Part shown: positions 3,833-56,712 of the stretch, one piece after another
How the letters are laid out: every line of letters starts with the position of its first letter
How positions within the stretch are numbered: the stretch's first letter is position 1
Assembly: GCA_963797055.1 (NCBI GenBank)
Contig: CAWCOD010000002.1
Coordinates: 491,598 to 555,597 of the forward strand
Direction: 5' to 3'
DNA: 64,000 nucleotides
Source: an uncultured Holophagae bacterium
GTDB taxonomy: Bacteria; Acidobacteriota; Thermoanaerobaculia; Thermoanaerobaculales; Sulfomarinibacteraceae
Position numbers and translations under genes: made by a program
Notes under the pieces: generated by a model
Seen by the model: only the letters and a program-made list of their open reading frames with translations
Database searches by the model: none
Told to the model about the DNA's origin: nothing

Positions 3833-3985
3833 GGGGGCGCGCTGGGCGGGCGTGCCGTCCGCACACGCGTCGCGAACGCGGGGACCGGTGCCAGGCACCG
3901 TCGAAATCGAATCGGAGCACGAGATCGACACATCTGTGGCGGTGCCTGGCACCGACATGGAGATCGCGAATGCGATGGTGGCGGT
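3833..3985 (+). repeat. Dispersed repeat family A, copy 1
   Basis: GGGCGGGCGTGCCGTCC module, then GGTGCCAGGCACC (3887..3899), a 41-nt conserved spacer and GGTGCCTGGCACC (3941..3953), then GACATGGAGATCG. Overlaps the attH-like start. Confidence 0.85.
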
Positions 3986-5089: not shown

Positions 5090-5154
5090 CCCCGCCCACC
5101 CCCGCGCGATCGAAGATCGAAGAACAAAGATCGAAGATCCCGCGCCCACCCGGG
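5090..5154. repeat. C-tract box / 7-mer array (GAAGATC, GAACAAA) / C-tract box
   Basis: CCCCGCCCACCCCC, then GATCGAAGATCGAAGAACAAAGATCGAAGATCC, then CGCGCCCACCCGGG. Confidence 0.9.
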
Positions 5155-5210: not shown

Positions 5211-5312
5211 CTATCCCGAGCCCGAGCCCGAGCCCGTTACCGGCTCCGTGCCCGGGCCGGATCAAAACGAAGAACAAAGAACAAAGATCCCCCACCCACC
5301 CGGATCTTGAAA

Positions 5313-5490
5313 GGGCGCGATGGGCGGGCGTGCCGTCCTGGAGCGCATCGGATACGCGCGGGCCGGTGCCAGGCACCGTCGAAATCGAATCGGAGCACGA
5401 GATCGACACATCTGCGGCGGTGCCTGGCACCGACATGAAGATCGGAATGCGAAGGGTGGCAACCTGCCGCCGGCAGCGGTTGTGGCCGTG
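5313..5490 (+). repeat. Dispersed repeat family A, copy 2 (most complete)
   Basis: All modules present. Perfect 13-bp arms at 5365..5377 and 5419..5431. Tail GGGTGGCAACCTGCCGCCGGCAGCGGTTGTGGCC is shared with 18252.. and 44700..44757. Confidence 0.9.
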
Positions 5491-5721
5491 GGCGGCGGTC
5501 AATTCGCAATTCGCAATTCGGATTGGTGTTGGCGGCCCGGGGGCCTGGTTGGTGCCAATTTGACAACTGCCGTTCCGAGCCCCACATTGATCTCAATAAC
5601 ATCTTCGAGATGAATGGGTAAATTTCAGAAGCGTTGATGGGTCTCGCGTCAGGGGTATGGCTGTGGGGTTGTTTCTGCGATTGATTCCTACAAACAAACG
5701 CGCGAGCGACATTGGAGAACG

Positions 5722-5835
5722 GCGCCTCCCTCGGAGGTGCCTGGCATCCCGATTCGCCGAGGTCGATGAGCGACCTGGCTCGTGGGGGCGAATCGGCGTG
5801 CCTGGCACCCTCACGGGAAGCGCGGCGGGAACATC
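5722..5835 (+). repeat. Dispersed repeat family B, copy 1
   Basis: GGAGGTGCCTGGCATCCCGATTCGCC, a variable loop, then GGCGAATCGGCGTGCCTGGCACCCTCACGGGAAGCG. Confidence 0.85.
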
Positions 5836-5951
5836 GGCGCGTCGAAAATGACACGTCCTGCCTGCTCCGTCGCGCCAGTTCTCCCTTCGCGCTCCCCGAG
5901 GTTACTCGCGGCCGGTGGCCGCGCCCACTGCCGCATCGGGTGGGTGGGCGG

Positions 5952-5984
5952 CAACTTTCAACTTTCGACTTTTCAACTTCCAAC
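5952..5984. repeat. 7-mer array (CAACTTT-like) after GGGTGGGTGGGCGG
   Basis: Box at 5938..5951. The array ends 15 nt before ATG 6000. Confidence 0.9.
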
Positions 5985-5999
5985 TCGAGAGGGGAGATC

Positions 6000-7667
6000 A
6001 TGAAAACGAAACACGTCGTGTTGTTGGCGGCGATTATTGTGTGCTGCTCAGGATTGGCGATGGCCCAGACCGAGTGGGTCGAATACCCGGACAACCCGGT
6101 CCTTGGGCCGGGTGATCCGGGGGCGTGGGACTCAGCTTACCGGGAGGTCCTCAACGTCGTGTCCGACGGCTCGATGTATCACCTGTACTTCTGGGGCACC
6201 GATGACGAGGACAACATCCCGGCCGCCATCGGCCATGCCACCTCATCAGACGGCGTGACGTGGACCATTGATCCCAACAACCCGGTATTGACCACGGGGG
6301 CCGAGGGGGAGTGGGACGAAGGCGGCATCGTTAATTTCGCAGTGATTTACGACAACGCCGAGTTCCACGTGTGGTACGCAGGGTGGATCGACGACTGGAA
6401 CTCTGGCGTCGGGTATGCCACCTCGCCCGACGGCAGCACGTGGACGAAGTACTCGGGGAACCCGGTCCTCGGCCACGGGTCTGCCGGGTCGTTCGATGAG
6501 AGCGGCGTTTTCCCTCGCAGCGTGATTTTCGACGGGGGAACCTACCGGATGTGGTACACGGGAGTGGACGTGCCCGATTTCTTCTTTACGATCGGTTACG
6601 CCGAATCCCCCGACGGGATCTCGTGGACAAAGCACCCGGGCCCGGTCCTCGGACCGGGATCGGGTTGGGACTCCTGGGACGTGTGGGGTCCGTCGGTCAT
6701 CTTTGACGGGTCGATCTACCACATGTGGTACACGGGATCCGAGCTTGTCGAGGGCTGGGTGTTCCCCGGGGGAATCGGCTACGCCGCCTCGGCGGACGGC
6801 ATCGAGTGGACGAAGTACCCGGACAATCCGGTGTTCGTTTTAGACGAGAGGCTAGTGAGTTATGGGAGTGTCGTGTTTGACGGCTCGGCCTACCGGATGT
6901 GGTATATGGATGGGGTCGTCGAGGGACCACCGGCGGAGATCGCGTACGCCACCTCCGACTGTTGCGCCCCCCCGATTTTCCGGCAGACCATCCCAGCGGC
7001 GGCGCTGGCATCGGGCGCTCAGGGATCCTTCTACCAGACCGATTTGGACCTCAACAACGCCGGTGACCAGCCGGTGGAGTACGAGTTCTGGTGGCTGCCC
7101 CGGGGCGAGACCAACACCGAGCCGACCAGGTCGGAGACCTTCAGCCTCGGTGCGGGCATGAGCGTGCGCTACGCCAATGTGCTGTCCGAGGTCTTCGGCC
7201 TTGAGCCCAACTCCTTCGGGGCGCTGTCGATTCTGTCGTCGAGCCCGGATCTGCTGGCCATGAGCCGGACCTACAACAACCCCGAGGGCGAGGACGCGGG
7301 CACCTTCGGCCAGGCCATTCCGGCGGTGCCACCGAGCGACTTCATCCAGACCGGCGAGCGACGGAGAATCCTCTTCGCCAGCGAGCACGAGGACCTGCGG
7401 TTCAACGTGGGCTGCCAGAGCGGCAGCGGCGAAGGGACCATGATCGTCAACCTCGAGCTCTTCGATGACGAGGGCACGTCGTTGGAGCAGACCATGATGA
7501 TCCTCAGGGCCTGGGGCAACGACCAGCTCAACCGGATCTTCCAGGACTACATGCCGGTGAACGGCTACGTCGATGTCTGGACCACCTTGCAGAACAAGAG
7601 CTTCTACTGCTACGGATCGGTGCTCGACAACGTGACCAGTGATCCGACGACGGTGCTGCCGCAGTGA
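6000..7667 (+). CDS. Secreted GH43/GH130-like beta-propeller protein with conserved C-terminal domain of unknown function (paralog 1)
   Basis: ORF 5712..7667. ATG 6000 follows RBS GAGAGGGGAG and gives signal peptide [23 protein letters not shown]. Five to six blade repeats (DG..YHMWY ... IGYA.S.DG..WTK...NPVL). The C-terminal ~230 aa ([24 protein letters not shown] ... [16 protein letters not shown]) is shared with 8048..9717 and 18796..20439. Confidence 0.85.
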
Positions 7668-7880
7668 GCCAGGGAGCAGGGCAGCGCTCCCATCGGAGGC
7701 GCGGCGGGCAGTCCCGAGCTCGACCGAGGCCGACCAACGACCTGTCATCGTCGGAGGAGCGAAATCGCGGCGTGCCTGGCACCCTCATGGGAAGCGCGGC
7801 GGGAACATCGGCGCGACGAAAATGACACGTCCTGCCTGCTCGCGTCGCTGCCCGTTCTCCCTTCGCGCTCTCCGAGGTTG

Positions 7881-7954
7881 CCAGGTACGCGCATTGTGCG
7901 GCCCCATCGACATCGCCCGGCCGTCGCCAGTTGTTCGCACAATGACGTACCTGG
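7881..7954. repeat. Hairpin element family E, copy 1
   Basis: CCAGGTACGCGCATTGTGCGGCC, about a 30-nt loop, then GTTCGCACAATGACGTACCTGG. It is inserted in the paralog-2 leader relative to the paralog-1 leader. Confidence 0.8.
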
Positions 7955-8000
7955 CACGCCCGATCATCGCGCCCACTGCCAGATCCAAGTGGGAGCGCGG

Positions 8001-8032
8001 CAACTTTCAACTGTCAACTTTCAACTTCCAAC
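8001..8032. repeat. 7-mer array (CAACTTT-like) in the paralog-2 leader
   Basis: CAACTTTCAACTGTCAACTTTCAACTTCCAAC; homologous to 5952..5984. Confidence 0.9.
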
Positions 8033-8047
8033 CCGAGAGGGGGAGTC

Positions 8048-9717
8048 ATGAACGCGACACGAGTGACGTTATTGGCGGTGATTCTGTGTGCTCATTGTCG
8101 CGGTGGCGTCGGCGCAGACCGAGTGGGTTGAAAATCCGGTCGATCCGGTGCTCGGGACGGGTGAGCCGGGGTCCTGGGACTACATCCGACTGCCGGCTGA
8201 GGTCGTCCTGGTTGACGGCACCTACCACCTCTTCTTCGGCGGTCAGCCGGAGGGTGACCGATCGCCTATTCGACGCTCTTCAGTTGGGGCACGCGACGTC
8301 GTCGGATGGTGTGACCTGGGAGATCGACCCGGCCAACCCGGTTCTGACTCTTGGAGGGGCGGGTGAATGGGACTCCGCGACCCTCCTGCCGGGAGCCATC
8401 GTCCACGATGGGAACGGATTTCACCTGTGGTACCACGGGAGCAACCCGACGGAGATACCTACCTCAGCGCGGTCGGTTATGCGACTTCGCCGGATGGCTC
8501 AAACTGGGTGAAACACGACGGCAACCCGATCATGGGCGAGGGACTGCCCGGGACCTACGACGACGGAGGTGTGCTGCCTCGCACGGTGATCGTCCGAGAC
8601 GGACTCTACCAGATGTGGTACACCGCGATTCATCGCTCGGACAACGAGTATGATTGGCGAATCGGCTACGCCGTCTCGGACGACGGTCTGGACTGGACCC
8701 GGCACCCTGTCCCGGTGCTGGAACCAGGTGTCGGGTGGGAGCAACTGATCGTCTTTGCTCCTCATGTGAGATTCGAGAGGTCGCAGTACCACATGTGGTA
8801 TAGCGGCTCCAATGGCGGGACCTTCAATATCGGATATGCTGTCTCGTCAGACGGCATCGAGTGGACCAGGTATTGGGACAACCCCGTCGTGTCCCGAGAC
8901 CCCTCGATTGCGGCCGAGCTCCCGTTGATTGTCCTCAACCCGGACACCCAGACATACGAGATGTGGTACCGAAACCTGGTCAATCTCAGCATCTACCGAG
9001 CCGTGTCGAACTGCTGTGCCACGGTGCATCTGTTGATCATTCCGGCCGCCGCAGTGGCCTCGGGCGCTCAAGGGTGCCTTCTACCAGACCGACGTGGACC
9101 TCAACAACGCCGGTGAGCAGCCGGTGGAGTACGAGTTTCTGTGGTTGCCCAGGGGCGAGACCAACACCGACCCGATGACCTCGGAGCCCTTCAGCCTCGG
9201 CGCTGGCATGAGCGTTCGGTACGCCAACGTGTTGTCCGAGGTCTTCGGTCTCGAGCCCAACGCCTTCGGTGCCGTCGGCATTCTTGTCCTCGAGCCCGGA
9301 TCTTCTGGCCATGAGCCGGACCTACAACATACCGAGGGTGACGGATCTGCCGGGACCTTCGGCCAGGCGATTCCGGCCATCCCACCGAGCGACTTCATCC
9401 AGACCGGAGAGCGGCGGCGGATCCTGTTCGCCAGCGAGAACGAGGATTTGCGGTTCAACGTGGGCTGTCAGAGCGGCGGTGACGGAACCATGGTGGTCAA
9501 CCTCGAGCTCTTCGACCACGAGGGCAGCTCGTTGGGGACAGAGATGATGATCCTCAGGGCCTGGGGCAACGACCAGATGAATCGGATCTTCCAGGACTAC
9601 ATGCCGGTGAACGGCTACGTGGACGTGTGGACCACAGACGCCGACAGAAGCTTCTACTGCTACGGCTCGGTGCTGGACAACGTGACCAGCGACCCGACGA
9701 CGATTTTGCCGCAGTGA
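8048..9717 (+). pseudogene. Frameshifted paralog 2 of the secreted beta-propeller / C-terminal-domain protein
   Basis: Homologous sequence is spread over ORFs 7639..8511, 8088..8366, 8367..9116 and 9094..9717. ATG 8048 follows the same leader and RBS as paralog 1. Frame changes near 8090, 8265, 8455 and 9080, plus a compensating pair near 9285 and 9335. Confidence 0.8.
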
Positions 9718-9737
9718 ACAAGGGAGCAGGGGGCAGG

Positions 9738-9925
9738 GCGCGTCCCTCGGAGGTGCCTGGCATCCCGATTCGCCGAGGTCGACAAGACCGATTCGTCCCG
9801 CTGGAGCGAATCGGCGTGCCTGGCATCCTCACGGGAAGCGCAGTCGGAGAATCGGCGCGTTGAAGTCGGTAGATCGAACCGAATGAGAGGAATTTGTGGT
9901 GCGGCCGTCTCGGCTGCAATCACAA
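9738..9925 (+). repeat. Dispersed repeat family B, copy 2 (long form)
   Basis: Same stem modules plus a 3' extension (GGAGAATCGGCGCGTTGAAGTCGG ... TTGTGGTGCGGCCGTCTCGGCTGCAAT). Confidence 0.9.
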
Positions 9926-9931
9926 CGGAAC

Positions 9932-9972
9932 CAAGATCGAAGAACAAAGATCGAAGATCCCCCACCCACCCA
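9932..9972. repeat. 7-mer array (GAAGATC/GAACAAA) plus CCCCCACCCACCC box
   Basis: Same array type as 5108..5140 and 5265..5303. Confidence 0.9.
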
Positions 9973-13706: not shown

Positions 13707-13844
13707 GTGCTCCTCAACGTAGTGCGACTACGCCTGCGTCGCCCGATCCGCTAAAAACCACATCTGACCACCCTCGCCGCCCCGTGACGAAACCCGGTGT
13801 GAAGTGCGGGTTAGAATGTTCCCCGCCCACCCGGAACGAAAAAG

Positions 13845-13990
13845 CGCAACAGGCGGGCGTGCCGTCCTCACGCGCGCCGCGAGCGCGCGGGCCGGTGCCA
13901 GGCACCGTCGAAATCGCATCGGAGCATGAGATCGATACATCTGCGGCGGTGCCTGGCACCGACATGGCGATCGGAATATGAGGTGGGCTC
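13845..13990 (+). repeat. Dispersed repeat family A, copy 3
   Basis: Arms at 13894..13906 and 13948..13960; same spacer with a few substitutions. Confidence 0.85.
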
Positions 13991-14082
13991 ACTCGGGGAG
14001 CGCCAGGGGGAGATGGGCGCGATGAAGTTCGGTCATCGATCTCATAGCGTTCGTCGCGCCCTGGCCGTCAGTGCGCTCCCCG

Positions 14083-14185
14083 TCGAGGATGCCAGGCACG
14101 CCGATTCGCCTGAAGTTCACGGGCACATCGACGCACGATGGCGAATCGGGATGCCAGGCACCTCCGAGGAACGCGCCCTCTTCCG
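14083..14185 (-). repeat. Dispersed repeat family B, copy 3 (inverted, short)
   Basis: Reverse complement of the core stems, with a different loop. Confidence 0.8.
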
Positions 14186-14258
14186 TTCCGGATGGGCAGG
14201 GGATAACGTTTCAACGTTGAACGTCTGCACCCTCCACTCTTTCCGCACCGTCCCCACC

Positions 14259-18196: not shown

Positions 18197-18247
18197 TTAA
18201 GTTGAAAGTTGAACGTTAAACGTTGAACGTTCCCACCCTCCCTCCCG
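18197..18247. repeat. 7-mer array (GTTGAAC/GTTAAAC) plus CCCACCCTCCCTCCCGG
   Basis: TTAAGTTGAAAGTTGAACGTTAAACGTTGAACGTT followed by the C-tract box. Confidence 0.85.
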
Positions 18248-18425: not shown

Positions 18426-18435
18426 GGTTGGGAGA

Positions 18436-18640
18436 AGGCGCGTCCCTCGGAGGTGCCTGGCATCCCGATTCGCCAACGTCGACAAACCGACTCGTCCCGT
18501 TGGAGCGAATCGGCGTGCCTGGCATCCTCACGGGAAGCGTGGCTGGAGAATCGGCGCGTTGAAATCGGCACCTGAAACCGAACGAGAGGGGCATTGTGGC
18601 GGAGCCGTCCCGGCTGGGATTCTGGCCGCGATTGAGCGCG
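18436..18640 (+). repeat. Dispersed repeat family B, copy 4
   Basis: About 107 nt identical to 24744..24850. Confidence 0.9.
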
Positions 18641-18795: not shown

Positions 18796-20439
18796 ATGGG
18801 TGGAAGACGAGTTGTGGTGGTGTTGGCGATTGGGGTGTGCTGTGCGGGAATCGCAATGGGGCAAACGGACTGGGTCGACAACCCGGACAATCCGGTCATC
18901 GAGTCGGGTGAGTCCGGATCGTGGAATGCAGGCGGGAACTGGGGCACGGCCGCCTTCTTTGACGGATCGACCTACCACATGTGGTTCACCGGGGAGGACC
19001 AAAACGGGTATTGGTCCGGCGTCGGCCACGCCACCTCACCCGATGGCGTCGAATGGACCATGGATCCGGCCAACCCCGTAGTTTCCGCCGGCGAATCCGG
19101 GGAGTGGGACGACTCCTACGTTATTTCGGGGGCGGTGATCCACGACGGGACCCAGTTCCACATGTGGTACTCGGGCTCCGGCGGTGCCGAGGAATCGCTC
19201 GGCTACGCCACTTCGCCCGACGGCAGTATGTGGACCAAACACGACGGCAATCCTGTCATGGATGCTGGGGCGTCCGGCACGTGGGACGACTTATGGGTCG
19301 GGCCCTCCTCGGTCATTGCAGACGGCGAGAACCTCCAGATGTGGTATTGGGGCTCCAACGGGTCTGTCGGGAGTATCGGGTATGCCGAATCGCCGGACGG
19401 GATCGATTGGACCAAGCGCCAGGAGCCGGTCCTCGAACCGCAGGAAATCCCCGGGGGGGCCTGGGACGCGCAGACTCTCTACGGCCCGCTCGTCATTTTC
19501 AACCCACTCAACCCACCCATGTACCAGATGTGGTACGGAGGGCACGATTCGGACAACCCCCTTGTCGGCTATGCCTTCTCGAGCGACGGCATCGAGTGGA
19601 CGCGACACCGTGACAATCCGGTCATCGAAGCCGGCCATCCCGTTGTTCTCTTTGACGGGTCCGACTATCACATGTGGTACGCCTACAAAGATGGTGGCTG
19701 GCAAATGTCCTACGCCACCTCTGACTGCTGCCCCGGTGTGGCTGGTCTGACGCACATGCAGACCATCCCGGCTGCGGCGGTGGCCTCGGGCGCCGAGGGG
19801 GCCTTCTACCAGACCGACGTAGACCTCAACAACCCCGGTGAGCAGCCGACGGAGTACAAGTTCATGTGGCTTCCCCGCGGTGAAACCAACTCCGACCCCA
19901 TGGCGTCGGAGTCCTTCAGTCTCGGCGCCGGCATGAGCGTGCGCTATGCCAATGTGCTGTCCGAGGTCTTCGGGCTCGAGCCCAACTCCCTCGGGGCGTT
20001 GTCCATTCTGTCATCGAGCCCCGATCTGCTGGCCATGAGCAGGACCTACAACAGTCCCGAGGGCGAGGAGGCGGGCACCTTTGGCCAGGCCATTCCAGCG
20101 GTTGCGCCCGTTGATTTCATTACAACCGATGAGAGGCGGAGGATTCTCTTCGCCAGCGAAAACGATGATCTGCGTTTCAACGTGGGCTGCCAAAACGGCG
20201 GAGATCTCAGCATGGTGGTCAACCTCGAGCTCTTCGACTCCGAGGGCTCGTCGTTGGAAAGCACAATCATGCTCCTTAGGGCTTGGAGCAACGATCAGTT
20301 CAACCGTGTGTTTGGTGATTACCAGCCGGTCAACGGCTATGTCGATGTGTGGACCACAAACGCTGGCAAGAGCTTCTATTGCTACGGATCGGTGCTGGAC
20401 AACGTGACCAGCGACCCGACGACGATTTTGCCGCAATGA
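18796..20439 (+). CDS. Secreted GH43/GH130-like beta-propeller protein with conserved C-terminal domain (paralog 3)
   Basis: 547-aa ORF after RBS AAAGGAGGAAG. Signal peptide MGGRRVVVVLAIGVCCAGIAMGQ. Same blade motif (STYHMWFTG, VGHATSPDGVEWT). The C-terminal domain is nearly identical in parts to paralog 1 ([39 protein letters not shown]). Confidence 0.9.
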   Translation: MGGRRVVVVLAIGVCCAGIAMGQTDWVDNPDNPVIESGESGSWNAGGNWGTAAFFDGSTYHMWFTGEDQNGYWSGVGHATSPDGVEWTMDPANPVVSAGESGEWDDSYVISGAVIHDGTQFHMWYSGSGGAEESLGYATSPDGSMWTKHDGNPVMDAGASGTWDDLWVGPSSVIADGENLQMWYWGSNGSVGSIGYAESPDGIDWTKRQEPVLEPQEIPGGAWDAQTLYGPLVIFNPLNPPMYQMWYGGHDSDNPLVGYAFSSDGIEWTRHRDNPVIEAGHPVVLFDGSDYHMWYAYKDGGWQMSYATSDCCPGVAGLTHMQTIPAAAVASGAEGAFYQTDVDLNNPGEQPTEYKFMWLPRGETNSDPMASESFSLGAGMSVRYANVLSEVFGLEPNSLGALSILSSSPDLLAMSRTYNSPEGEEAGTFGQAIPAVAPVDFITTDERRRILFASENDDLRFNVGCQNGGDLSMVVNLELFDSEGSSLESTIMLLRAWSNDQFNRVFGDYQPVNGYVDVWTTNAGKSFYCYGSVLDNVTSDPTTILPQ

Positions 20440-24684: not shown

Positions 24685-24743
24685 CCGTCTGCCGGCCCAA
24701 AGCGAAGTGCGGAATCCTCATCCCCCACCCATCCGCGAGGGGA

Positions 24744-24985
24744 GAAGGCGCGTCCCTCGGAGGTGCCTGGCATCCCGATTCGCCAACGTCGACAAACCGA
24801 CTCGTCCCGTTGGAGCGAATCGGCGTGCCTGGCATCCTCACGGGAAGCCCGCTCGGAGAATCTGCGCGTTGAAGTCGGCAGATTGAACCCAACGAGGTGG
24901 ATTTTGTGGCGCAGGCCTCTGGCCTGCATTCACTCAATCAATCAACGCCAGAATTGCAGGCGGGACGCCTGCGCTACAAAGGCGT
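24744..24985 (+). repeat. Dispersed repeat family B, copy 5
   Basis: Identical core to copy 4; the 3' extension diverges. Confidence 0.9.
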
Positions 24986-32265: not shown

Positions 32266-32307
32266 AAATTCGGAATTCGAAATTCGGAATTCGGCCCACC
32301 CGCCCGG
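32266..32307. repeat. 7-mer array (AATTCGG/AATTCGA) plus CCCACCCGCCCGG box
   Basis: AAATTCGGAATTCGAAATTCGGAATTCGG followed by CCCACCCGCCCGG. Confidence 0.9.
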
Positions 32308-35043: not shown

Positions 35044-35137
35044 GGAACGGTTGAACGTTCAACGTTCTCCTCCGCCCACCCGCCCAATTGCAGATTGCAG
35101 ATTGAAAATTGCAGATTCCGTCCCCCCACCCGCCCGG
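35044..35137. repeat. Composite: GAACGTT array / CCGCCCACCCGCCC / ATTGCAG array / CCCCCCACCCGCCCGG
   Basis: Two different 7-mer arrays, each followed by a C-tract box, immediately upstream of xerD. Confidence 0.9.
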
Positions 35138-35369: not shown

Positions 35370-35545
35370 GCAGCCGAGACGGTTGCTCCACAATGTTCTC
35401 TTCGTTGGGTTCGATATACCGATTTCACCGCGCCGATTCTCCGGCCGCGCTTCCCGTGAGGATGCCAGGCACGCCGATTCGCTCCAGCGGGCCGAATCGG
35501 TTTGTCGACCTCGGCGAATCGGGATGCCAGGCACCTCCGAGGAAT
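35370..35545 (-). repeat. Dispersed repeat family B, copy 6 (inverted, long form)
   Basis: Reverse complement of the 9738..9925 architecture, including the extension. Confidence 0.85.
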
Positions 35546-35781
35546 GACTTTCTCCCAACGCGCTCCTCGGGGGGGCGGGTGAGTTTCGAAACTCGAAATT
35601 CGAAATCAACACCTGGGTCCGTAAAAGCGTATAGCTTATAGCCCGGGTGGGTGAGGAAGCGAGTCCGAGCCCCGAATCCCGAGCCCCGATCGGAGTATCA
35701 GCGGACGGAAGAGTCGGAACCCATTGTCCGGGCGGAAGCATCGCCCCCTGAATTTGGTTTGCCCAGGAGGGAGAGCAACGA

Positions 35782-37875
35782 GTGAATCCGGTCACACCCA
35801 CGGTTCTGTCACGGTTGGAGCGGCTCCACGAGTCCATTGTGCGGGTAATCCGCGGCAAGTCGGAACTGGTGGACTCGCTGATGGCGGCTCTGATCGCCCG
35901 GGGCCACGTTCTGCTCGAAGACGTGCCCGGAGTGGGCAAGACGACCCTCGCCCAGGCCCTCGCGCGTTCGCTGGACCTCGATTTTCATCGCATCCAGTTC
36001 ACATCCGACACCCTGCCCTCAGACATCATCGGGATCTCGGTCTACCGTCAGAACAGGGGTGACTTCGAGTTCATGCCCGGACCGCTGTTCGCCAACGTGG
36101 TACTGGCCGACGAGATCAACCGAGCGGCCCCACGGACCCAATCGGCGTTATTGGAGGCCATGAGCGAGAAGGCCGTGACCGTTGACAAGACCCGTCACGA
36201 GCTTGCCGTGCCGTTCCTGGTTGTGGCGACCCAGAATCCTATCGAATCAACCGGCACCTATCCTCTGCCCGAGAGTCAGTTGGACCGATTCCTGATGAGG
36301 CTCTCCATGGGTTACCCCGGCCGAGGGGAGGAGCTCGAGTTGCTTCGTACCGGAGGCACCGAGCCGGAGCTCGAGCAGTTGCAGCCTGTGCTCACGGCTG
36401 GCGAGGTGTTGGAGCTGCAGCACGAGGTGTCCGACGTCCACGTCAGCGACGAGTTGCGCCGCTACCTGATGGACGTTGTGGAACGAACACGATCGCACGA
36501 GGCGCTGGCGTTGGGGGTTTCCACTCGAGGGACTCTCGCGTGGCAGCGATGCGCCCAGGCGCTTGCCCTCGTCAAGGGACGACCGTTCGTGATTCCGGAT
36601 GACCTGCAGGAGACCTCCGAGGCGGTGTTGGCCCATCGCGTTCTGTTGGCCGATCCCCTTGTGGACGACGGATGGGAGCGGAGTCGACGGGAGCGGGCGG
36701 TGATTCGCTCGATTCTGGAGAGCGTTGTCCCGGTGCCCACGGTGATGAAAGCAGCGGGAGTTCGGGAGTCGGGAGCCCGGACTCGGATGGTCTCGAGGAC
36801 CGTGGTTCGACGGCCCAATGTGCCGAGTCCCGGCTCCCGAGCTCCCGAATCCCGCCTTCCAGAAGACCGCCATGAGCTCGGCTCGACGCCTTCCGAGGGT
36901 TTCAGACTCAAGTTGACACGTTGGGGTGGGCTCTTCCTCCTTTCGATGCTTATCCTCGGGTTTGCCGCCGTCAACACAGGCAACAACGCACTGATGGCTC
37001 TCTTCGGCCTCGCTCTGGCCAGCTACGCCGTGTCCGGCGTCTGGTCACGGCAGGTCCTGGGCGGAATCGAGGTCCGGGCCGCCGCACCAAGAGAGATTTT
37101 TGCGGGCCGCCCGGCAATGGTGGATGTGGAGCTGCGCAACGGATGCCGGCTGTTGCCCGCTTATGGGATCGTGCTGCGTGATCGGTTGGGACGGGTCCTG
37201 CTGACCGAAGGGCTTCTGACGGCCTCTGGCGTGAGCCAACACAGCATCGAGCTTCAATTTGCGGACCGGGGTTGGACTGCGATCGGCCCGTGGACGCTCG
37301 AGGTCGTTTTGCCGCTCGGTTTTTTTGTCAAGTCGAAGGTCGTGATGGACCGGCGCGAGGTGCTGGTGTACCCAAGGTTGTTGCCGAAGACTGCAATGAC
37401 ATCCGAGGGTCGTGACCGTGGCCGGTACACAGAGAACTTCGATGACCGCGGTCGGGAGGGCGAGGTGGTTCAACTCCGCACCTTCCGCGAGGGCGACGAC
37501 ACCCGACAGATGCACTGGAAGCAGACCGCGCGGCAACAACAGCCGATCGTGACCGACCGCCAGCGGCGTGCTTCCGATCCTGTCTTCTTTGTCGTCGATC
37601 CGCGGCTGAGCGACGTCGCCGACCCGGTTCTCAGGGACCGGTTCGAGACCATGCTGTCGGAGGTGGCCACAGGCGTTGTCCGCCGTCTGGAGAGAGGTGC
37701 CGAGGTGGGTCTCGTGGTGGGAGATGAAGTATTTCCGCCCGAACGATCGACGCAGCGCGCGGCCCGCCTGCTCCGTCCACTCGCCGAGGTCGAGCCGCGC
37801 CGGCCCGATGCTCCTCCGCCGCGCAGGGTGACCGCTCGGTTGTCTCGCCACCACAGCGTCGGGGGTGGAGCGTGA
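35782..37875 (+). CDS. MoxR-type AAA+ ATPase and DUF58 protein in one uninterrupted ORF
   Basis: 697-aa ORF. Residues 1-320 are MoxR-like (PGVGKTT, VLADEINRAAPRTQSALLEAM). Residues from about 370 are DUF58-like (LFLLSMLILGFAAVNTGNNALMALFGLALA, FREGDDTRQMHWKQTAR). There is no stop between the parts. A possible internal DUF58 start is ATG 36745, in the context CGGTGATGAAA. Confidence 0.8.
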   Translation: MNPVTPTVLSRLERLHESIVRVIRGKSELVDSLMAALIARGHVLLEDVPGVGKTTLAQALARSLDLDFHRIQFTSDTLPSDIIGISVYRQNRGDFEFMPGPLFANVVLADEINRAAPRTQSALLEAMSEKAVTVDKTRHELAVPFLVVATQNPIESTGTYPLPESQLDRFLMRLSMGYPGRGEELELLRTGGTEPELEQLQPVLTAGEVLELQHEVSDVHVSDELRRYLMDVVERTRSHEALALGVSTRGTLAWQRCAQALALVKGRPFVIPDDLQETSEAVLAHRVLLADPLVDDGWERSRRERAVIRSILESVVPVPTVMKAAGVRESGARTRMVSRTVVRRPNVPSPGSRAPESRLPEDRHELGSTPSEGFRLKLTRWGGLFLLSMLILGFAAVNTGNNALMALFGLALASYAVSGVWSRQVLGGIEVRAAAPREIFAGRPAMVDVELRNGCRLLPAYGIVLRDRLGRVLLTEGLLTASGVSQHSIELQFADRGWTAIGPWTLEVVLPLGFFVKSKVVMDRREVLVYPRLLPKTAMTSEGRDRGRYTENFDDRGREGEVVQLRTFREGDDTRQMHWKQTARQQQPIVTDRQRRASDPVFFVVDPRLSDVADPVLRDRFETMLSEVATGVVRRLERGAEVGLVVGDEVFPPERSTQRAARLLRPLAEVEPRRPDAPPPRRVTARLSRHHSVGGGA

Positions 37876-39860
37876 CGGCCGGTGCCTTCTATCGGAGGCT
37901 GGCGGGGCTGCTCCTGCTGTGGTCCCTTCTCCCTCTGCCTTTCCTGTACATCGTGATGCCACCGTTTTGGATTACGGCCGGGATTGTCGCTCTGGCGTTG
38001 ATCTTGGTCCCGTCGTGGTCGCCGAAGCTGGAGCCGTGGGCCCTCAATCTGATTGCGGTTCTGATCGTGATCGGGGTTGTGGCCGCGGGCGGGATTCGAG
38101 TCGGGCCTCTCCGCCCCCTCGGTCATCTACTGCTCCTGCTGACCGCGGTTCGGGTGAGCCAGATCATCGACCGACGCTCGTTCCTCAAGGCCCTGCCGGC
38201 GATCTTCCTGGTGTGGGTTGTTTCCCTGACGTCGTCGACCCACGTGACGGCCCTTGTCTACTTTGCGGTGTCGGCCGTGGTCTGGTGGTGGACGGGCATG
38301 GAAATCCAATTGGCCGCAGTGGCGGTGGACGATGGCGTTCCCGCGGCTTCCGTCCGACCGAGGCACGCGCTGGTGGCCGCCGTCGTGGCCCTTGCGCTGG
38401 CGGTGCCGGTGTTCGTTTCGGTGCCCAGGCTGCGCTCGCCGTGGCTCGCCGGGAGCGGAGGCGTGCGGAGCGTGACGGGTTTCTCGAGTCGTGTGGAGCT
38501 TTCCGGAATCGGCACCATTCAGGAGTCTCAGGAGCGCGTGCTGGTGGTGCGATCGGTCAACGGTGAGCCCATCAGACCGGAATGGATGAGGCTGCGGGCA
38601 ACCGCCTTCGAGAGGATGACGGTGGAATCCTGGGCGCCGCGGCCTCCGGACCGTTCCGTTCGGCCGCGAAGCGGACTGATATGGCTGACGGAAGGAGACG
38701 AGGACATGGGCGACGCCGCCCAGTTGGAGATCGAACTCGACCGGCCGGACGAGTTCCTCTTCCTGCCCGGCGGTGCGATCGCCGTCGATGTTCCCGAGCC
38801 CGTTCGAATCGATCCGGCGGGGGGAGTCGTCCTCGTGTCGCCGGGGACCGGACCGCTTCATTACACCGTGTGGGTCTCTCGGACAGCTGTCCAACAACGT
38901 CTTGTCCCGCCCCCGAACGGCGGATTGGAGTTCGAGCCGGCCCCGGAGGTGCGCGCCCTGGCCATTCGGATCGCCGCCGGAGCCGCCACCGCCGAAGCCC
39001 GCGCTGCGGCCGTGGAAGCGTACCTCCAAAACGAGTACACCTACTCCATGACAGGGTTGGGGAGGATCGGTCCGGATCCGGTGAGTTGGTTCCTTCTCCG
39101 ATCCAGATCAGGCCACTGCGAGTACTTCGCCGGTGGGATGGCGGTGATGATGGGCGCGCTCGGCGATCCGGCACGAATGGTCGGAGGATACAGCGGTGGC
39201 GATCTGTCTCAGACCGGTGATGAGGTGGTGGTTCGCCAGGCCAATGCACATGCCTGGGTTGAGGTCTGGCTGGGACCGCGGCTGGGCTGGGGAGTCTTCG
39301 ATCCAACTCCGGCCGTCAACCTCCCGCGGCTCAATAAGGTGAATTTGGGAGACCGGTTGCGTTTTGCCTGGGAGAACATCCAGGCGGGTTGGGATAAGTA
39401 TGTCCTGACCTTCGGTGTTGCGGAGCAGATGCAGTTGCTGACCGCTGCTGGCGATCGTCTGGCGGCGGCGCTGAGTTCGTGGCGCCGGCGGGATACGGCG
39501 ATCGTTGTCGGAGCGCTGGCCCTGCTCTGGTTGACGTGGCGGGCGGTGAGGTGGTTTTTGCGCCGTACAAGCGGCGGGCGATCCGCGGGCCCCGCGTCTC
39601 CGGCATCACGGTCGATACGGCGACTGGTGCGTCGTCTTGAACGTTCAGGCGTCACGGTTCCTGTGGGAGCGACGGTCCGTTGGATCGGCCAGGCCGCGAC
39701 TCGCCGGTGGCCGTCGGCGTCCCAGCCGGCTGCCGACCTGGTGTGGCTGGCGGAGCGAGAGCTCTACTCAGAAGACGGGTCGGTCTACGGCCCGGTCGAG
39801 GTCCGCCGGGTCTGGTCCGACCTGCGCCACGCCATTCGCGACTCTCGCCGAGATTTTTGA
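37872..39860 (+). CDS. Transglutaminase-like membrane protein
   Basis: GTGA start/stop overlap with the upstream ORF. N-terminal TM helices. Catalytic core SGHCEYFAGGMAVMMGALGDPARMVGGY ... NAHAWVEVWL ... GVFDPTP. Confidence 0.9.
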   Translation: MTAGAFYRRLAGLLLLWSLLPLPFLYIVMPPFWITAGIVALALILVPSWSPKLEPWALNLIAVLIVIGVVAAGGIRVGPLRPLGHLLLLLTAVRVSQIIDRRSFLKALPAIFLVWVVSLTSSTHVTALVYFAVSAVVWWWTGMEIQLAAVAVDDGVPAASVRPRHALVAAVVALALAVPVFVSVPRLRSPWLAGSGGVRSVTGFSSRVELSGIGTIQESQERVLVVRSVNGEPIRPEWMRLRATAFERMTVESWAPRPPDRSVRPRSGLIWLTEGDEDMGDAAQLEIELDRPDEFLFLPGGAIAVDVPEPVRIDPAGGVVLVSPGTGPLHYTVWVSRTAVQQRLVPPPNGGLEFEPAPEVRALAIRIAAGAATAEARAAAVEAYLQNEYTYSMTGLGRIGPDPVSWFLLRSRSGHCEYFAGGMAVMMGALGDPARMVGGYSGGDLSQTGDEVVVRQANAHAWVEVWLGPRLGWGVFDPTPAVNLPRLNKVNLGDRLRFAWENIQAGWDKYVLTFGVAEQMQLLTAAGDRLAAALSSWRRRDTAIVVGALALLWLTWRAVRWFLRRTSGGRSAGPASPASRSIRRLVRRLERSGVTVPVGATVRWIGQAATRRWPSASQPAADLVWLAERELYSEDGSVYGPVEVRRVWSDLRHAIRDSRRDF

Positions 39861-39955
39861 ATTTTGAATTTTGAATGCTACGACCTTCCAGCCCGACGAC
39901 CCCCCCCGGGCGGGTGGGGGCATTCAAAATTCAGAATTGAGAATTGAGAATTCAG
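39852..39955. repeat. Composite: TTGAATT array / CCCCCCCGGGCGGGTGGGGG / inverted GAATTGA array
   Basis: The left array overlaps the transglutaminase stop codon. The right array is partly its reverse complement. Confidence 0.9.
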
Positions 39956-44384: not shown

Positions 44385-44545
44385 GCTTTGTGGTGCGGCC
44401 GTCTCGGCTGTAATTCTGGCCTTGACTGAATGGGCGAATGCAGGCCGGAGGCCTGCTCCACAATGGCTCTTCTCGTTGGGTTCAATCTACCGACTTCAAC
44501 GCGCCGATTCTCCGACTGCGCTTCCCGTCGATCCGATTTTGACGG
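44385..44545 (-). repeat. Family B 3'-extension module fused to a family A arm
   Basis: TTGTGGTGCGGCCGTCTCGGCTGTAAT ... GCGCCGATTCTCCGACTGCGCTTCCCG, then GACGGTGCCTGGCACCGG. Confidence 0.75.
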
Positions 44546-44589
44546 TGCCTGGCACCGGCCCGGGGGTATGGAAAGACCCTCTTGATTTC

Positions 44590-46953: not shown

Positions 46954-47049
46954 CCCGGGCGGGTGGAATCCGCAATTCACAATTCGCAATTCGCAATTCG
47001 CAATTCGAAATACGTATTACGTAATACGAAATGGTCGGGTGGGCGGGGG
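46954..47049. repeat. CCCGGGCGGGTGG / CAATTCG x5 and TACGTAA arrays / GGTCGGGTGGGCGGGGG
   Basis: Lies between the sulfatase-like gene and tmk, with a G-tract box on each side. Confidence 0.9.
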
Positions 47050-47063
47050 TTATACTCCCCCCC

Positions 47064-47699
47064 ATGCCACGTGGATGGTTCATCACATTCGAGGGCGGTG
47101 AGGGCACCGGAAAGAGCACTCAGATCGAACGGCTGGCAGGTCAACTGCGAAGCGCCGGGCGAGAGGTGGTGGTCACCCGGGAGCCGGGTGGGACTCCCAT
47201 TGCCGAAGCGGTGCGAGTCATACTGCTCGATCCTCGGTTCCAACCGGACGGCGTGGTGGAGGCCTTTCTCTATCAGGCGGCCCGGCGCGACCACGTGGAG
47301 ACCGTCGTGCGGCCGGCGGTGGAGCGCGGTGCGGTGGTGCTGAGCGATCGATTCGCCGACTCTTCGCTGGTCTACCAGGGACTGGCGCGGGGGGTGGGCT
47401 GGGATGAGGTGGAGCGCCTCAACATTCTGGCCACCGGGGGCCTGCAACCGGACCTTACAGTCGTTTTCGATCTCGACCCGCGGATCGGACTGGATCGGGC
47501 CCGGGGTCGGAACCTGGGCGGGAGCGGGAGTGAGAGTCGGCTCGACGAGGAGCCTCTGGCCTTCCACGAGCTGGTGCGGGCCGGGTTTCTCGAGCTCGCA
47601 GGCCGGTTTCCGGAGCGGGTGCGAGTCATCGACGCCGGCGGTGGTCCGGATGATGTCTTTGGTCGGCTGCTGGCTGCCCTGCCGGAGGGTTTGGCGTGA
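47064..47699 (+). CDS. tmk: Thymidylate kinase
   Basis: ORF 47031..47699; ATG 47064. P-loop FITFEGGEGTGKST, and DRFADSSLVYQG. Confidence 0.93.
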   Translation: MPRGWFITFEGGEGTGKSTQIERLAGQLRSAGREVVVTREPGGTPIAEAVRVILLDPRFQPDGVVEAFLYQAARRDHVETVVRPAVERGAVVLSDRFADSSLVYQGLARGVGWDEVERLNILATGGLQPDLTVVFDLDPRIGLDRARGRNLGGSGSESRLDEEPLAFHELVRAGFLELAGRFPERVRVIDAGGGPDDVFGRLLAALPEGLA

Positions 47700-48604
47700 G
47701 CTGGTGGCCGCCCGAGGTGATGGATCGTGAGCGATGGGGCCCATCGGTGGACGACGTCCTCGACCGGGTTGCGCGAGCTCGGCGCAAGGGGCGATTCCCG
47801 CAAGCGTTGCTCTTCGCCGGTCCTGCCGGCATGGGTCGTGAGCTGGCCGCCGTGGAGACCGCTGTGATGCTTGCCTGCGCGGACACCGATGCCCCGTGGA
47901 GCGAGGGCTCGTGCGCCGACAGGGTTCGGGCCGGTCACCACCCCGATGTCATGGCCGTTCTGCCGCAGGGTGCCGCCAAAAAGATCAAGATTGAACAGAT
48001 TCGGGAGGTTGTGGACAGCGCCCCGTCACGGCCGTACGAAGGGCGGCGGCGGGTCTGGATTCTTGATGGTGTGGAGACCGGCGGCCTGATTCCGGCCGCG
48101 GCGAATGCCTTCCTGAAGGTTCTCGAAGAGCCTCCGGAGCATGTGCGATTCTTGCTCTTGGCGGCCAACCCGACCGCCGTTCTGCCGACGATTCGGTCCC
48201 GCTGCCAACAGCTCTCCCTGCCGGGAACGGCGGCCGTCGCCCGCGGACTGGGTTTCGATGTGGCGCCGGGATTGGCCGGACCGGTCCTGGCCGGGCTCGA
48301 CCTGGACCGCTCCGTGGTCGATGCAAGGCGCGCCCTGCGCGAGGCTTTGGCCGGCGAGGTGCGGGGGCTGGTGCGGCTTCCGCAGCTGGTGCCGGAAGGT
48401 ATTGCGGGCACCGAGTTCGTCGCCGCGGTGGCCCTCGAGGAGGCGGGAAACGGCACCGATGTGGAGGACGGTTACGAGTTCTCCCGGTTGGCGGCGGATC
48501 TCCTGACGGCGGAACGAAGGGTTTTGGCGGTCGGGCTCAACCGCGACCGCCAGCTGCTGGCCACGCTCATGCGGTGGTTCCGCGAGCTTCCCCCGCGCGC
48601 ATAG
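47696..48604 (+). CDS. holB: DNA polymerase III delta-prime subunit
   Basis: Start/stop overlap with tmk. FAGPAGMGRELAA, AANAFLKVLEEPPEHVRFLLLA and LPTIRSRCQ. Confidence 0.85.
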   Translation: MSWWPPEVMDRERWGPSVDDVLDRVARARRKGRFPQALLFAGPAGMGRELAAVETAVMLACADTDAPWSEGSCADRVRAGHHPDVMAVLPQGAAKKIKIEQIREVVDSAPSRPYEGRRRVWILDGVETGGLIPAAANAFLKVLEEPPEHVRFLLLAANPTAVLPTIRSRCQQLSLPGTAAVARGLGFDVAPGLAGPVLAGLDLDRSVVDARRALREALAGEVRGLVRLPQLVPEGIAGTEFVAAVALEEAGNGTDVEDGYEFSRLAADLLTAERRVLAVGLNRDRQLLATLMRWFRELPPRA

Positions 48605-49218
48605 GCCGTCTCGATTTCTGCGATTGACTGACCCGGCCGGCGGCGGCTCGCTTCCAGCTTCGCGCTCGGCCCTTCGCCGTGACAGATCGCTCGCCCCGGG
48701 AGTTTCCCCGGCGGCGGCGAGCTGTGCTCGCCCCCCGCTCTCGGTGACCCCACCCCTCCGAACACGAGTGTTCGTCGGTGTGGGATCACCTCGATCGGGC
48801 GCGGACTGCGTCCGCGCCGCCGAGCATGGTGTGGTGAGTAGCCCCTTCACTCTTTGTTGGGTTTCATCGCGCCAAGCGCCGCCCCTCTCGCCGCGTGTAT
48901 CACCCGCGCCTGCGTCGGGATGACCAGACGGTCTATCCCTCCTTGTCGCGGGCTCACACTGCACCGAGAGGGACACCTTTGGCGCGATACGCTGTGCTGG
49001 GCACATCGGGGCCCAGGTGCTTCCGAGGGGAGGGAGTCGGCCCGTGCTCAGCCAATGACGGCTTCGCACTGAGGCTCGAGTTCGCTTACGGGCTTCTGCT
49101 GCGGCCCGCGATGGAGGGCCATCTGGGCCGCATTCGCGAACCATCTGGCCATCCCTCGCGGCCCTCGCGACGAAGCCCTTCGCTCGTCGAGCCGCCGACC
49201 ATGCTCGATCGTTTTGCC

Positions 49219-49307
49219 GGTGCCAGGGCCGACACTTTTGGCACTCTTGTCATGTCATGACATAGATCCACGTGACTCAAGCGGTCGTAAGTGTCGGCCC
49301 TGGCACC
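49219..49307. repeat. 19-bp perfect inverted repeat hairpin built on the split GGTGCCAGG/CCTGGCACC core
   Basis: GGTGCCAGGGCCGACACTT, a 51-nt lower-GC loop containing TGTCATGTCATGACA, then AAGTGTCGGCCCTGGCACC. Confidence 0.85.
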
Positions 49308-49339
49308 GGGACCTGGCACGGGACCCGACGCGCCCATCT

Positions 49340-49530
49340 CCCAACCGCGCTCCCCGCGGTTGCCACCCTCGCATTCCGATCTCCATGTCGGTGCCAGGCA
49401 CCGCCGCAGATGTAGCGACCTCGTACTCCGATTCGATTTCGACGGTGCCTGGCACCGGCCCGCGCGTATTGGATGCGCTCCAGAACAGCACGCCCGCCCA
49501 TCGCGCCCCTCACTCCTGGTGGGTGGGGGA
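49340..49530 (-). repeat. Dispersed repeat family A, copy 4 (inverted)
   Basis: Reverse complement of the 5313..5490 consensus. Arms at 49390..49402 and 49444..49456. Confidence 0.85.
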
Positions 49531-49624: not shown

Positions 49625-49737
49625 GCGGGCGGGCGGGGAATCTGCAATCTGCAATCTGCAATCTGTAATCTATCGCAATTCGAAATGGGCGGGTGGGGGT
49701 TCTCAAAGCCCTATAGCCCGGGCGGGTGGGTGGCGGC
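49625..49737. repeat. GCGGGCGGGCGGGG / AATCTGC x4 array / GGGCGGGTGGGGG / CCCGGGCGGGTGGGTGGCGG
   Basis: Three G-tract boxes and one array, ending 30 nt before the SSS transporter start. Confidence 0.9.
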
Positions 49738-54733: not shown

Positions 54734-54800
54734 CCCCCCCGCCCGCCCGACCAATTGCAGATTGCAGATTGCGAATTGCGGATTCCGCCCACCCGCCCGG
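54734..54800. repeat. CCCCCCCGCCCGCCCG / ATTGCAG array / CCGCCCACCCGCCCGG
   Basis: Same array type and box arrangement as 35072..35137. Starts at the stop codon of the radical SAM gene. Confidence 0.9.
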
Positions 54801-56284: not shown

Positions 56285-56400
56285 TCGGAGGTGCCTGGCA
56301 TCCCGATTCGCCAAGGTCGAAAATAGTACCTTCTCGTTGAGCCGAATCGGCGTGCCTGGCAGCCTCACGGGGAGTCCGCTGAGAATTGGGGCGCGACGAA
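56285..56400 (+). repeat. Dispersed repeat family B, copy 8
   Basis: Core stems with a unique AT-richer loop (AAGGTCGAAAATAGTACCTTCTCGTTGAGCC). Confidence 0.85.
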
Positions 56401-56435: not shown

Positions 56436-56645
56436 TCAGCGCGCCCCTCTCCCCGCAGCGCTCCCCGAGGTTGCCACCCTCGCATTCCGATCTCCATGTC
56501 GGTGCCAGGCACCGCCGCAGATGTAGCGACCTCGTGCTCCGATTCGATTTCGACGGTGCCTGGCACCGGCCCGCGCGTATTGGATGCGCTCCAGAACAGC
56601 ACGCCCGCCCATCGCGCCCTCCTCCGATCCGGGTGGGCGGGGGAA
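56436..56645 (-). repeat. Dispersed repeat family A, copy 5 (inverted)
   Basis: Near-identical to 49340..49530 over about 190 nt. Arms at 56501..56513 and 56555..56567. Confidence 0.9.
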
Positions 56646-56712
56646 TCTGCAATCTGCAATCTGCAATCTGCAATCTGCAATCTGCAATTCGCAATTCGCA
56701 ATTCGTAATTCG
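56629..56712. repeat. CCGGGTGGGCGGGGG plus the longest array (AATCTGC x5, then AATTCGC/AATTCGT x4)
   Basis: Box at 56629..56643; about 68 nt of 7-mer repeats, ending about 18 nt from the stop of the EAL gene. Confidence 0.92.

Follow-up and report, generated by a model that had tools for sequence, protein, structure and literature searches.

A hairpin in an uncultured Holophagae genome that is probably a non-autonomous doublet of TIRYT-type repeat units

We examined a perfect hairpin at 49217–49309, with a partial duplication of its right end that extends to about 49325, in a 64,000-nt stretch of DNA from an uncultured Holophagae bacterium (contig CAWCOD010000002.1, positions 491,598 to 555,597; this whole stretch is called the window). 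The hairpin is probably a non-autonomous doublet, similar to a miniature inverted-repeat transposable element (MITE) or to a REPIN (an inverted doublet of repetitive extragenic palindromic, REP, sequences), made of two inverted units of a TIRYT or “TIRtron” system. Such a system, as described by Di Nocera et al. in 2013 (PMC3733652), consists of a gene resembling those for REP-associated tyrosine transposases (RAYTs), with long terminal inverted repeats (TIRs) at its flanks; such genes with their TIRs are the TIRtrons and the enzymes the TIRYTs. The evidence that carries this reading is that in related genomes and metagenomes the units forming the two arms, each with the head GGTGCCAGG at its outer end, flank a gene for a Y1 HUH transposase in inverted orientation, and that they are also dispersed through intergenic DNA as single units, tandems and doublets of nearly constant length.

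The inverted repeat is perfect over 21 bp (CCGGTGCCAGGGCCGACACTT; arms 49217–49237 and 49289–49309) and encloses a spacer of 51 nt; the doublet measures 89 nt and its heads face outward (Table 1). The left arm has the full design of the unit and is identical at 31 of 32 positions to the repeat upstream of the transposase gene at locus L056; the spacer of the doublet had no match in any fetched locus. The initial annotation had the place and the 51-nt loop right and gave the stem as 19 bp instead of 21, and it quoted a 15-mer as the palindrome of the loop, where the exact palindrome is the 12-nt ATGTCATGACAT (49252–49263) at the centre of the spacer. The chance of a 12-nt palindrome in a 51-nt stretch is about 1% by a rough estimate, and since ATGTCATGACAT is absent from the spacers of 22 other doublets it is not a feature of the family. 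The hairpin had also been taken for a palindromic core split open. A direct duplication would have put CCAGG on both sides, but opposite CCAGG the sequence has CCTGG, so the hairpin is a true terminal inverted repeat; the same comparison ruled out an insertion that split a palindrome and duplicated 5 bp, no duplications having been found.

The hairpin lies within a 1.1-kb intergenic region between holB (47696–48604) and the gene of a sodium:solute symporter, the Pfam domain of which starts at about 49870. A second inverted repeat occurs in the same region at 48734–48799, with 32-nt arms that are 78% complementary and 2 nt apart; its sequence is unrelated to the head motif, and its only Rfam match was to a plant miRNA precursor, far below threshold.

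The palindromic core GGTGCCWGGCAYC gave 29 strand matches in the window, against 0.01 expected from dinucleotide-preserving shuffles (none of 100 shuffles reached this number); palindromic sites are counted on both strands, hence these matches represent 18 distinct sites. The more than 25 occurrences reported in the initial annotation therefore hold for strand matches, or for the relaxed 11-mer GTGCCWGGCAC, which with up to one mismatch allowed has 27 sites where 1.5 are expected, and not for distinct exact sites. Its observation that the core keeps out of supported coding regions was confirmed: a crude coding mask based on GC3 takes in 63% of the window and yet only 1 of the 27 cores (p = 1e-10), and this one (14156) is upstream of the start of the Pfam domain of its open reading frame (ORF). 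Likewise, the long ORFs that overlap elements have Pfam domains only far downstream of them. Single cores were found at 7772, 7947 and 44545. That high G+C and a bias toward palindromes would by themselves account for the motif and the hairpin is scarcely conceivable. The genome does have a G+C content of 61–68%, and GGTGCC alone is only mildly enriched (106 occurrences against roughly 77 expected, a rough estimate); but the shuffles reject this explanation, a 15-mer occurred once per contig in viral contigs, which is background, with the core there at chance level, and the 19-mer of the arm recurs in 13 related genomes. The viral contigs also held one distant relative of the transposase. A literature search for the motif string returned unrelated matches only, e.g. 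papers on phage integrase att sites. The core was also considered as a sigma-54 promoter (CTGGCAC as the −24 box, in TGGCAC-N5-TTGC) and this was rejected, as TTGC is not found at N5 in the hairpin or in either of two further core-bearing repeat families of the window, A and B; in family B a TTCGC is one base out of register for sigma-54 spacing.

When one genome per species was scanned for exact matches to the arm 19-mer GGTGCCAGGGCCGACACTT, 53 stretches were found, of which 51 came from 13 Acidobacteriota metagenome-assembled genomes (MAGs), mostly Holophagae and many with isolate names prefixed MFD; the other 2 are Actinomycetota singletons that look like chance matches. The window is not among the 53 matches, so its genome is a relative outside that set. 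The Holophagae matches also overturned an early guess, prompted by G+C content and heptamer repeats, that the DNA is from a planctomycete. From 135 arm-anchored instances the unit has the consensus GGTGCCAGGGCCGACACTT-tkGacacTT, about 29–30 nt with a sharp 5′ edge, and it begins at its outer end with the invariant head GGTGCCAGG, followed by a linker of 3 nt and then by two boxes of 8–9 nt in tandem. The consensus is not self-complementary and has no GTAG or CGTC tag; pairing with GTGCCA is open only to those units whose box 2 contains TGGCAC. Coding DNA is avoided: of 129 units, 12 fall within a coding mask that covers 56% of bases. Two other readings of the units were tried. An integron attC site (RYYYAAC...GTTRRRY) was considered because the 3′ ends of genes abut some units; those “genes” are C-terminal fragments of the transposase, and the attC reading was rejected because the units have no GTTRRRY ends. 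A CRISPR reading was rejected for want of a regular repeat-spacer array.

At locus L022 two inverted units (4171, plus strand; 5231, minus strand) bracket an ORF of 324 aa that scored 89.4 bits with NCBIfam NF047646, “REP-associated tyrosine transposase” (cut-off 80), and 34.2 with Pfam Y1_Tnp (cut-off 23). Homologues adjoin units at four more loci (L009, L053, L046 and L040), with fragments at five further ones; the genes at L053 and L046 are flanked by differing repeats, GTGCCAGGTCAGACGATTCAGACGAT and GGTGCCAGGTACGGGGGTATTGATG, both of which start with (G)GTGCCAGG. A metagenome scan with the alignment of four proteins added 80 transposase loci at 42–74% identity, for 84 in all. Counting only loci with enough readable flank, 65 of 70 had a head within 130 nt upstream of the gene, and 64 of 68 had an inverted head no more than 150 nt downstream of it; both flanks carried the inverted repeat in 50 of 56 loci, where chance would give an estimated 0.04 heads per flank. 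Exact inverted stretches around the gene reach 36 nt, and the head starts 43–82 nt before the start codon. The proteins are about 320 aa long. A profile of 51 sequences matched E. coli TnpA_REP (PDB 4er8; E = 5.6e-7), and its positions 227–317 matched structures of DnaA domain IV (3pvp, 9.5e-5; 1j1v, 2.4e-3; 2hcb and 1l8q, 0.012); this second match holds at the profile level only, since Pfam Bac_DnaA_C scored 23.4 bits, below its gathering score of 31.5. Residues H60 and H62 (NHYH), W98, Y119, N123 and P124 (YIHLNP) are invariant in the alignment of 51 sequences and Q99 is present in at least 90%, so that the genes of these relatives have the HuH, WQ and Y---NP motifs of class 2 TnpA_REP (PMC6006769). 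The flanked gene is thus a predicted Y1 HUH transposase of TnpA_REP type fused to a helix-turn-helix domain resembling DnaA domain IV. The suggestion in the initial annotation of a cognate RAYT or HUH transposase was right in kind, as GGTGCCAGG forms the outer end of the inverted repeats at these genes. Its proposal of one recognition motif around which different elements were built is upheld insofar as the motif is linked to a transposase, and altered in that the conserved unit is the 9-nt head and not the 13-nt palindrome.

The 65 distinct units upstream of transposase genes have a common order: the head GTGCCAGG, often preceded by WTAG, then 3 nt, two tandem boxes, a TGnTAnnnT motif, about 25 nt and the start codon. 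In 57 of the 65 the best shift of the tail upon itself was 8 or 9 nt, with 7.2 of 12 positions matching against 3.9 in shuffles. Box pairs include GACACTTTT/GACACTTTT, AACGATTT/AACGATTT, CAGACGATT/CAGACGAT, CCAAGATC/CTAAGATC, TACACATT/TATACATT and ACGGAGTT/ACGTAGTT. TGnTAnnnT was found 26–30 nt after the start of the head in 35 of the 65 units, against 2.0 in shuffles (maximum 6), and its variants upstream of the transposase genes of L055–L134 (TGnTAGGAT, TGnTAGAAT, TGnTATGAT) resemble an extended −10 motif; at this fixed distance the two boxes occupy the −35 position of the transposase promoter. Pairwise identity was 0.97 for the head and 0.43 for the tail, and tail identity rose with protein identity (Mantel r = 0.64; 0 of 2000 permutations reached it).

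These features fit the TIRYT kind in protein motifs, domain architecture, flanking TIRs and dispersed copies, as far as sequence comparison can tell, and we regard the system as a new example of a known, little-studied kind of repeat and not as a new kind of system. Di Nocera et al. (PMC3733652) found copies of the TIRs in dispersed families as singles, dimers or groups, with a distinct group in Acidobacteria, and reported the motif GGGGWSAS in the majority of TIRs, others being without it. Quentin et al. in 2018 (PMC6006769) classed TIRYTs as TnpA_REP subclass 2.1 (Bertels’ RAYT group 1), the second-largest subclass of Y1 transposase relatives, with a C-terminus similar to Bac_DnaA_C (Bac_DnaA_C, HTH_23 or HTH_28) and without REP-like structures, and left its DNA target open. 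The present system agrees in its protein, a long Y1 HUH homologue of TnpA_REP whose C-terminal helix-turn-helix is akin to Bac_DnaA_C; in a gene flanked at short and fairly constant distances by TIRs rather than by REP hairpins; and in repeats that are dispersed as singles, dimers and groups, of a kind reported in Acidobacteria. It differs in that the head is GGTGCCAG(G), i.e. GGTGCCAGG, and not the published GGGGWSAS, and in its invariant head with two tandem boxes that depend on the protein, an arrangement not described in PMC3733652 or PMC6006769, which were the only papers in the library searched to mention TIRYTs; the hosts here are Holophagae and Thermoanaerobaculia MAGs, together with sediment or wetland metagenomes.

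A classical REP/REPIN system, in which hairpin units that are palindromic and tagged with GTAG are cut by a short single-domain RAYT of group 2 or 3, as in E. coli and Pseudomonas fluorescens (PMC3116915), is unlikely even though it shares much with the present one: the family of the catalytic domain, a gene flanked by its own inverted repeats and labelled by NCBIfam as a REP-associated tyrosine transposase, E. coli TnpA_REP as the closest solved structure, intergenic inverted doublets that form long hairpins and are presumably replicated as units, a repeat variant for each gene, and in families A and B a core that forms a short palindrome of its own. A classical REP is a short (20–40 nt), imperfect palindrome with a GTAG or CGTC tag, recognised as a hairpin by an enzyme of about 165 aa; whereas the unit here has a non-palindromic, untagged head followed by tandem direct boxes, the core of A and B is a 13-nt palindrome without a tag, and a protein of about 320 aa with an extra DNA-binding domain is the signature of the TIRYTs, subclass 2.1, which have no REP-like structures (PMC6006769). 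The doublets resemble REPINs in structure (two inverted units around a short spacer, forming a hairpin) and in recurring as whole doublets. A REPIN also has a cognate RAYT in the same genome, which here is presumed, and the associated type of enzyme is group 1, not group 2 or 3 as for the published REPINs.

Among 131 units in the Acidobacteriota loci and the window, 46 stood alone, and adjacent pairs were tandem in 29 cases, heads-outward in 23 and tails-outward in none. The heads-outward doublets measured 85–90 nt in 18 of 23; the sequence of the spacer varies between doublet families and its length does not. The same doublet, interior included, was found with unrelated flanks at several sites of one MAG (L052 at 1877 and 3617 with L053 at 5265) and again so in one MAG at L016 (973 and 2311) with L023 (3108). 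A target-site duplication of 3 bp or more was lacking in 22 of the 23 doublets, which is as expected for Y1 HUH chemistry and not for MITEs of DDE type. That the element is an ordinary MITE, derived from an insertion sequence of DDE type and with the arms of the hairpin as its TIRs, is therefore very unlikely. A perfect TIR of 21 bp, a small fixed size (85–90 nt) and many copies would suit it, but apart from the missing duplications the only gene found between such repeats, and sharing these TIRs, is that of a Y1 HUH transposase, and solo and tandem units are as common as doublets. The IS200/IS605 family and palindrome-associated transposable elements (PATEs) share the Y1 HUH chemistry, the lack of a target-site duplication and single-strand hairpins at the ends; IS200/IS605 elements differ in having dissimilar subterminal hairpins without TIRs, in inserting 3′ of a tetra- or pentanucleotide target, and in transposases that are short and multi-copy. 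The hairpin element is probably mobile.

We also considered an operator or other regulatory element recognised by a palindrome-binding regulator of the host, a nucleoid element or an element acting at the RNA level (a terminator or mRNA stabiliser), kept by selection and not by copying. The fold as RNA is very stable (−62.8 kcal/mol, z = −7.1), all copies are intergenic, REPs have been recruited to roles of this kind (PMC3733652), and the upstream unit overlaps the promoter-like TGnTAnnnT, so that some regulatory use is plausible. But the opposite strand folds equally well; neither a sigma-70 promoter pattern nor an intrinsic terminator with a T-run was found at the hairpin; and Rfam gave no family at gathering score, only sub-threshold matches to plant miRNA precursors, which are generic hairpins. 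Copies also occur in either orientation, on the upstream and the downstream side of genes and in the gaps of convergent or divergent gene pairs; what is conserved is the sequence of the arms and the length of the doublet, not the spacers; and the units flank the transposase gene at most of its loci. We judge this explanation quite unlikely.

The two further repeat families share the core with the hairpin. Family A has the form CGGTGCCAGGCACCG, 39 nt, CGGTGCCTGGCACCG, within an element conserved over roughly 150–180 nt in the alignment; family B has the form GGAGGTGCCTGGCATCCCGATTCGCC ... GGCGAATCGGCGTGCCTGGCAYCCTCACGGGAAG, with two cores in tandem around a separate hairpin. Context extraction and repeat finding confirmed two cores in each full copy of either family, as had been stated in the initial annotation. 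The palindrome GGTGCCWGGCACC amounts to two heads back to back, and in GGTGCCAGGCACC the head GGTGCCAGG overlaps with an inverted one. On the plus strand, all full A copies have A in the left core and T in the right, so that the perfect heads face outward as in the doublets. The A copies at 49329–49508 and 56440–56619 are 97% identical. The elements lie close together: 7 nt separate the doublet from an A copy, a B copy or the doublet is found no more than about 300 nt away from 4 of the 5 full A copies, and in a related MAG family B lies 35–180 nt from clusters of units. This clustering of several modules in intergenic DNA (A+C, A+B and B+A, 7–300 nt apart in the window) is like that of bacterial interspersed mosaic elements (BIMEs), BOX and Correia elements; the sequences are different ones, Correia elements belong to the DDE-type MITEs and carry TA duplications, and no transposase is known for BOX elements. 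In the fetched DNA, A and B copies outside the window were found only in MAG MFD09964.bin.1.27 (L012, L020, L025 and L047), at about 77–93% identity. Coding matches between the window and the loci of this MAG were 66–74% identical, few and short, and possibly paralogues. The A and B repeats may be more conserved than genes, through recent copying, transfer or constraint.

The most likely place of families A and B is in the same system or lineage, as additional repeats that are non-autonomous; this is the weakest step. Because no transposase gene with palindromic flanks was found and the A tails have no boxes of 8–9 nt, we infer the link from the shared head and from the clustering with hairpin-type units. 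Several points weigh against the reading of the whole as a TIRYT-type system with mobile doublets. Among the 134 genome and metagenome loci (L002–L135) no transposase gene was flanked by the palindromic GGTGCCWGGCACC; isolated GTGCCAGGCAC heads and one GGTACCAGGCAC-flanked gene (L109) were all that occurred there. As read from the alignment, the tails of family A are without the boxes, and the window has one doublet of the unit type against 5 A and 8 B copies. It also has no transposase gene (tblastn, and a six-frame profile search with a best E of 0.5), and a cognate enzyme in this organism is assumed. No insertion polymorphism was seen in this analysis, and we know of no experiment that has demonstrated mobility of repeats associated with TIRYTs. 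The head identity of 97% is partly built in, as heads were located by a regular expression; the recovery of heads upstream of transposase genes at 65 of 70 loci is the fairer measure of their constancy. The head fits GGGGWSAS at only 6 of 8 positions; given that other TIRs are without this motif (PMC3733652), the mismatch is no strict bar to membership.

The right arm of the doublet carries a partial duplication of its head, or stutter, which TRF reported as a period of 12 at 49299–49325. Of 329 heads, 46 were preceded at 8–19 nt (peak 11–13) by a partial head. Such a stutter is a tandem duplication of 9–19 nt immediately 5′ of the unit, composed of 4–7 nt of flank and the first 5–9 nt of the head, in the pattern X-GGTGCCA-X-GGTGCCAGG...; in 28 of the 46 at least 5 flank bases directly 5′ of both copies are identical, e.g. 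attaccGGTGCCA-attaccGGTGCCAGGG. Other examples are at L037 (6064, minus), L046 (3698, minus) and L129 (382, plus). The flank differs between sites, so each stutter is a local event. It may be a scar of nicking at the edge of the head.

If the hairpin is a TIRYT-type doublet, a transposase encoded elsewhere in the genome would copy such doublets in trans, by way of single-stranded DNA in which the doublet is folded into its 21-bp hairpin, as knowledge of IS200/IS605 and TnpA_REP would suggest. The catalytic domain would act (cleavage, joining) at or beside the invariant head, and the helix-turn-helix domain, similar to DnaA domain IV, would read the variable boxes, which overlap the gene’s own promoter. 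DnaA domain IV binds 9-bp boxes as a monomer (PDB 1j1v). Because the boxes sit at the position of the −35 element, the enzyme would be expected to repress its own promoter. We propose, tentatively and as a possibility to which we give clearly less than even weight, that the repeat is a two-part address for a two-domain enzyme, with A and B as head-only parasites. The HUH domain would then cut and rejoin single-stranded DNA at the head GGTGCCAGG, and the boxes would be duplex sites resembling DnaA boxes that give each transposase paralogue a private family of repeats and serve to repress the promoter. The stutters, including that of the right arm in the window, would be nicking scars, and A and B, in which the back-to-back heads are all that is kept, would be parasites with no need of more than the catalytic site.

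Table 1. Positions of the doublet, the repeat families and the period-7 arrays in the window.
Feature	Position	Strand	Details
Left TIR-like unit	49219–49250	+	Head GGTGCCAGG 49219–49227; linker GCC; box 1 GACACTTTT 49231–49239; box 2 GGCACTCTT 49240–49248
Inter-arm segment, 51 nt	49238–49288		Each unit's inner boxes, and a unique spacer bearing the palindrome ATGTCATGACAT (12 nt)
Right TIR-like unit	49276–49309	-	Head GGTGCCAGG 49307–49299; GCC; box 1 GACACTTAC; degenerate box 2 GACCGCTTG
Partial head duplication (stutter)	49309–49325	-	Reads tcccGTGCCAGG-tcccGGTGCCAGGG...; second CCTGGCAC at 49312–49319
Family A copy adjoining the doublet	49329–49508	-	Cores 49390–49402 (GGTGCCAGGCACC) and 49444–49456 (GGTGCCTGGCACC); perfect heads outward
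Family A copy	3831–3970	+	Cores 3887–3899, 3941–3953
Family A copy	5309–5448	+	Cores 5365–5377, 5419–5431
Family A copy	13838–13977	+	Cores 13894–13906, 13948–13960
Family A copy	56440–56619	-	Cores 56501–56513, 56555–56567
Family A, partial (half) copy	44529–44569	-	One core, 44544–44556
Family B copy	5731–5846	+	Cores 5737, 5798 around hairpin CCGATTCGCC...GGCGAATCGG
Family B, degenerate or half copy	7705–7820	+	Core 7772; further single near-core 7947
Family B copy	9731–9917	+	Cores 9753, 9816
Family B copy	14080–14200	-	Reverse orientation; cores 14089, 14151
Family B copy	18430–18616	+	Cores 18453, 18515
Family B copy	24740–24926	+	Cores 24763, 24825
Family B copy	35429–35572	-	Reverse orientation; cores 35462, 35524
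Family B copy	56285–56400	+	Cores 56291, 56352; 40 nt from the A copy at 56440
Period-7 arrays	963–993, 5108–5139, 5500–5520, 5952–5985, 8001–8032, 9933–9959, 18201–18231, 32267–32294		
Period-7 arrays	35087–35117, 39855–39876, 39922–39955, 46967–47011, 49639–49671, 54754–54784, 56644–56712		

Other features of the window were noted in passing. About 15 tandem arrays with a period of 7 and 3–6 copies (units AATCTGC, CAATTCG, CAACTTT, GATCGAA, GTTGAAC, AATTCGG, ATTGCAG and others) are all intergenic, AT-rich compared with the genome and often preceded by a CCCGCCCACCCGG-like sequence; several lie just upstream of genes, and one ends 20 nt before the start of tmk at 47031. Three paralogous genes (5712–7667, about 7900–9717 and 18796–20439) have internal repeats of about 180 nt with blade-like YGxSxDGxxW segments and weak matches to GH130 and GH32N; the middle gene is apparently broken into several ORFs, and each of the three has a family B copy or half-copy beside it. 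ARAGORN called a tRNA-Ser(CGA) at 36762–36849, within the ORF 35782–37875 and between its MoxR-type AAA and DUF58 domains, where Rfam gave no tRNA at gathering score; the call is either spurious or a sign that the ORF in reality comprises two genes with something in between.

If true, the two-part address would be the first mechanistic model for the TIRYT enzymes, that is, for the RAYT group 1 reportedly delineated by Bertels et al. in 2017. With dozens of enzyme variants that have one 9-nt head in common and each their own pair of 8–9-nt boxes, the assignment of domains to sites is directly testable. For annotation, these repeats explain a large part of the intergenic DNA, unusually long and full of repeats, in this Holophagae-like genome; being linked to a transposase, they ought not to be labelled as ORFs, terminators or small RNAs; the head motif can be used as a marker for such systems in Acidobacteriota metagenomes.

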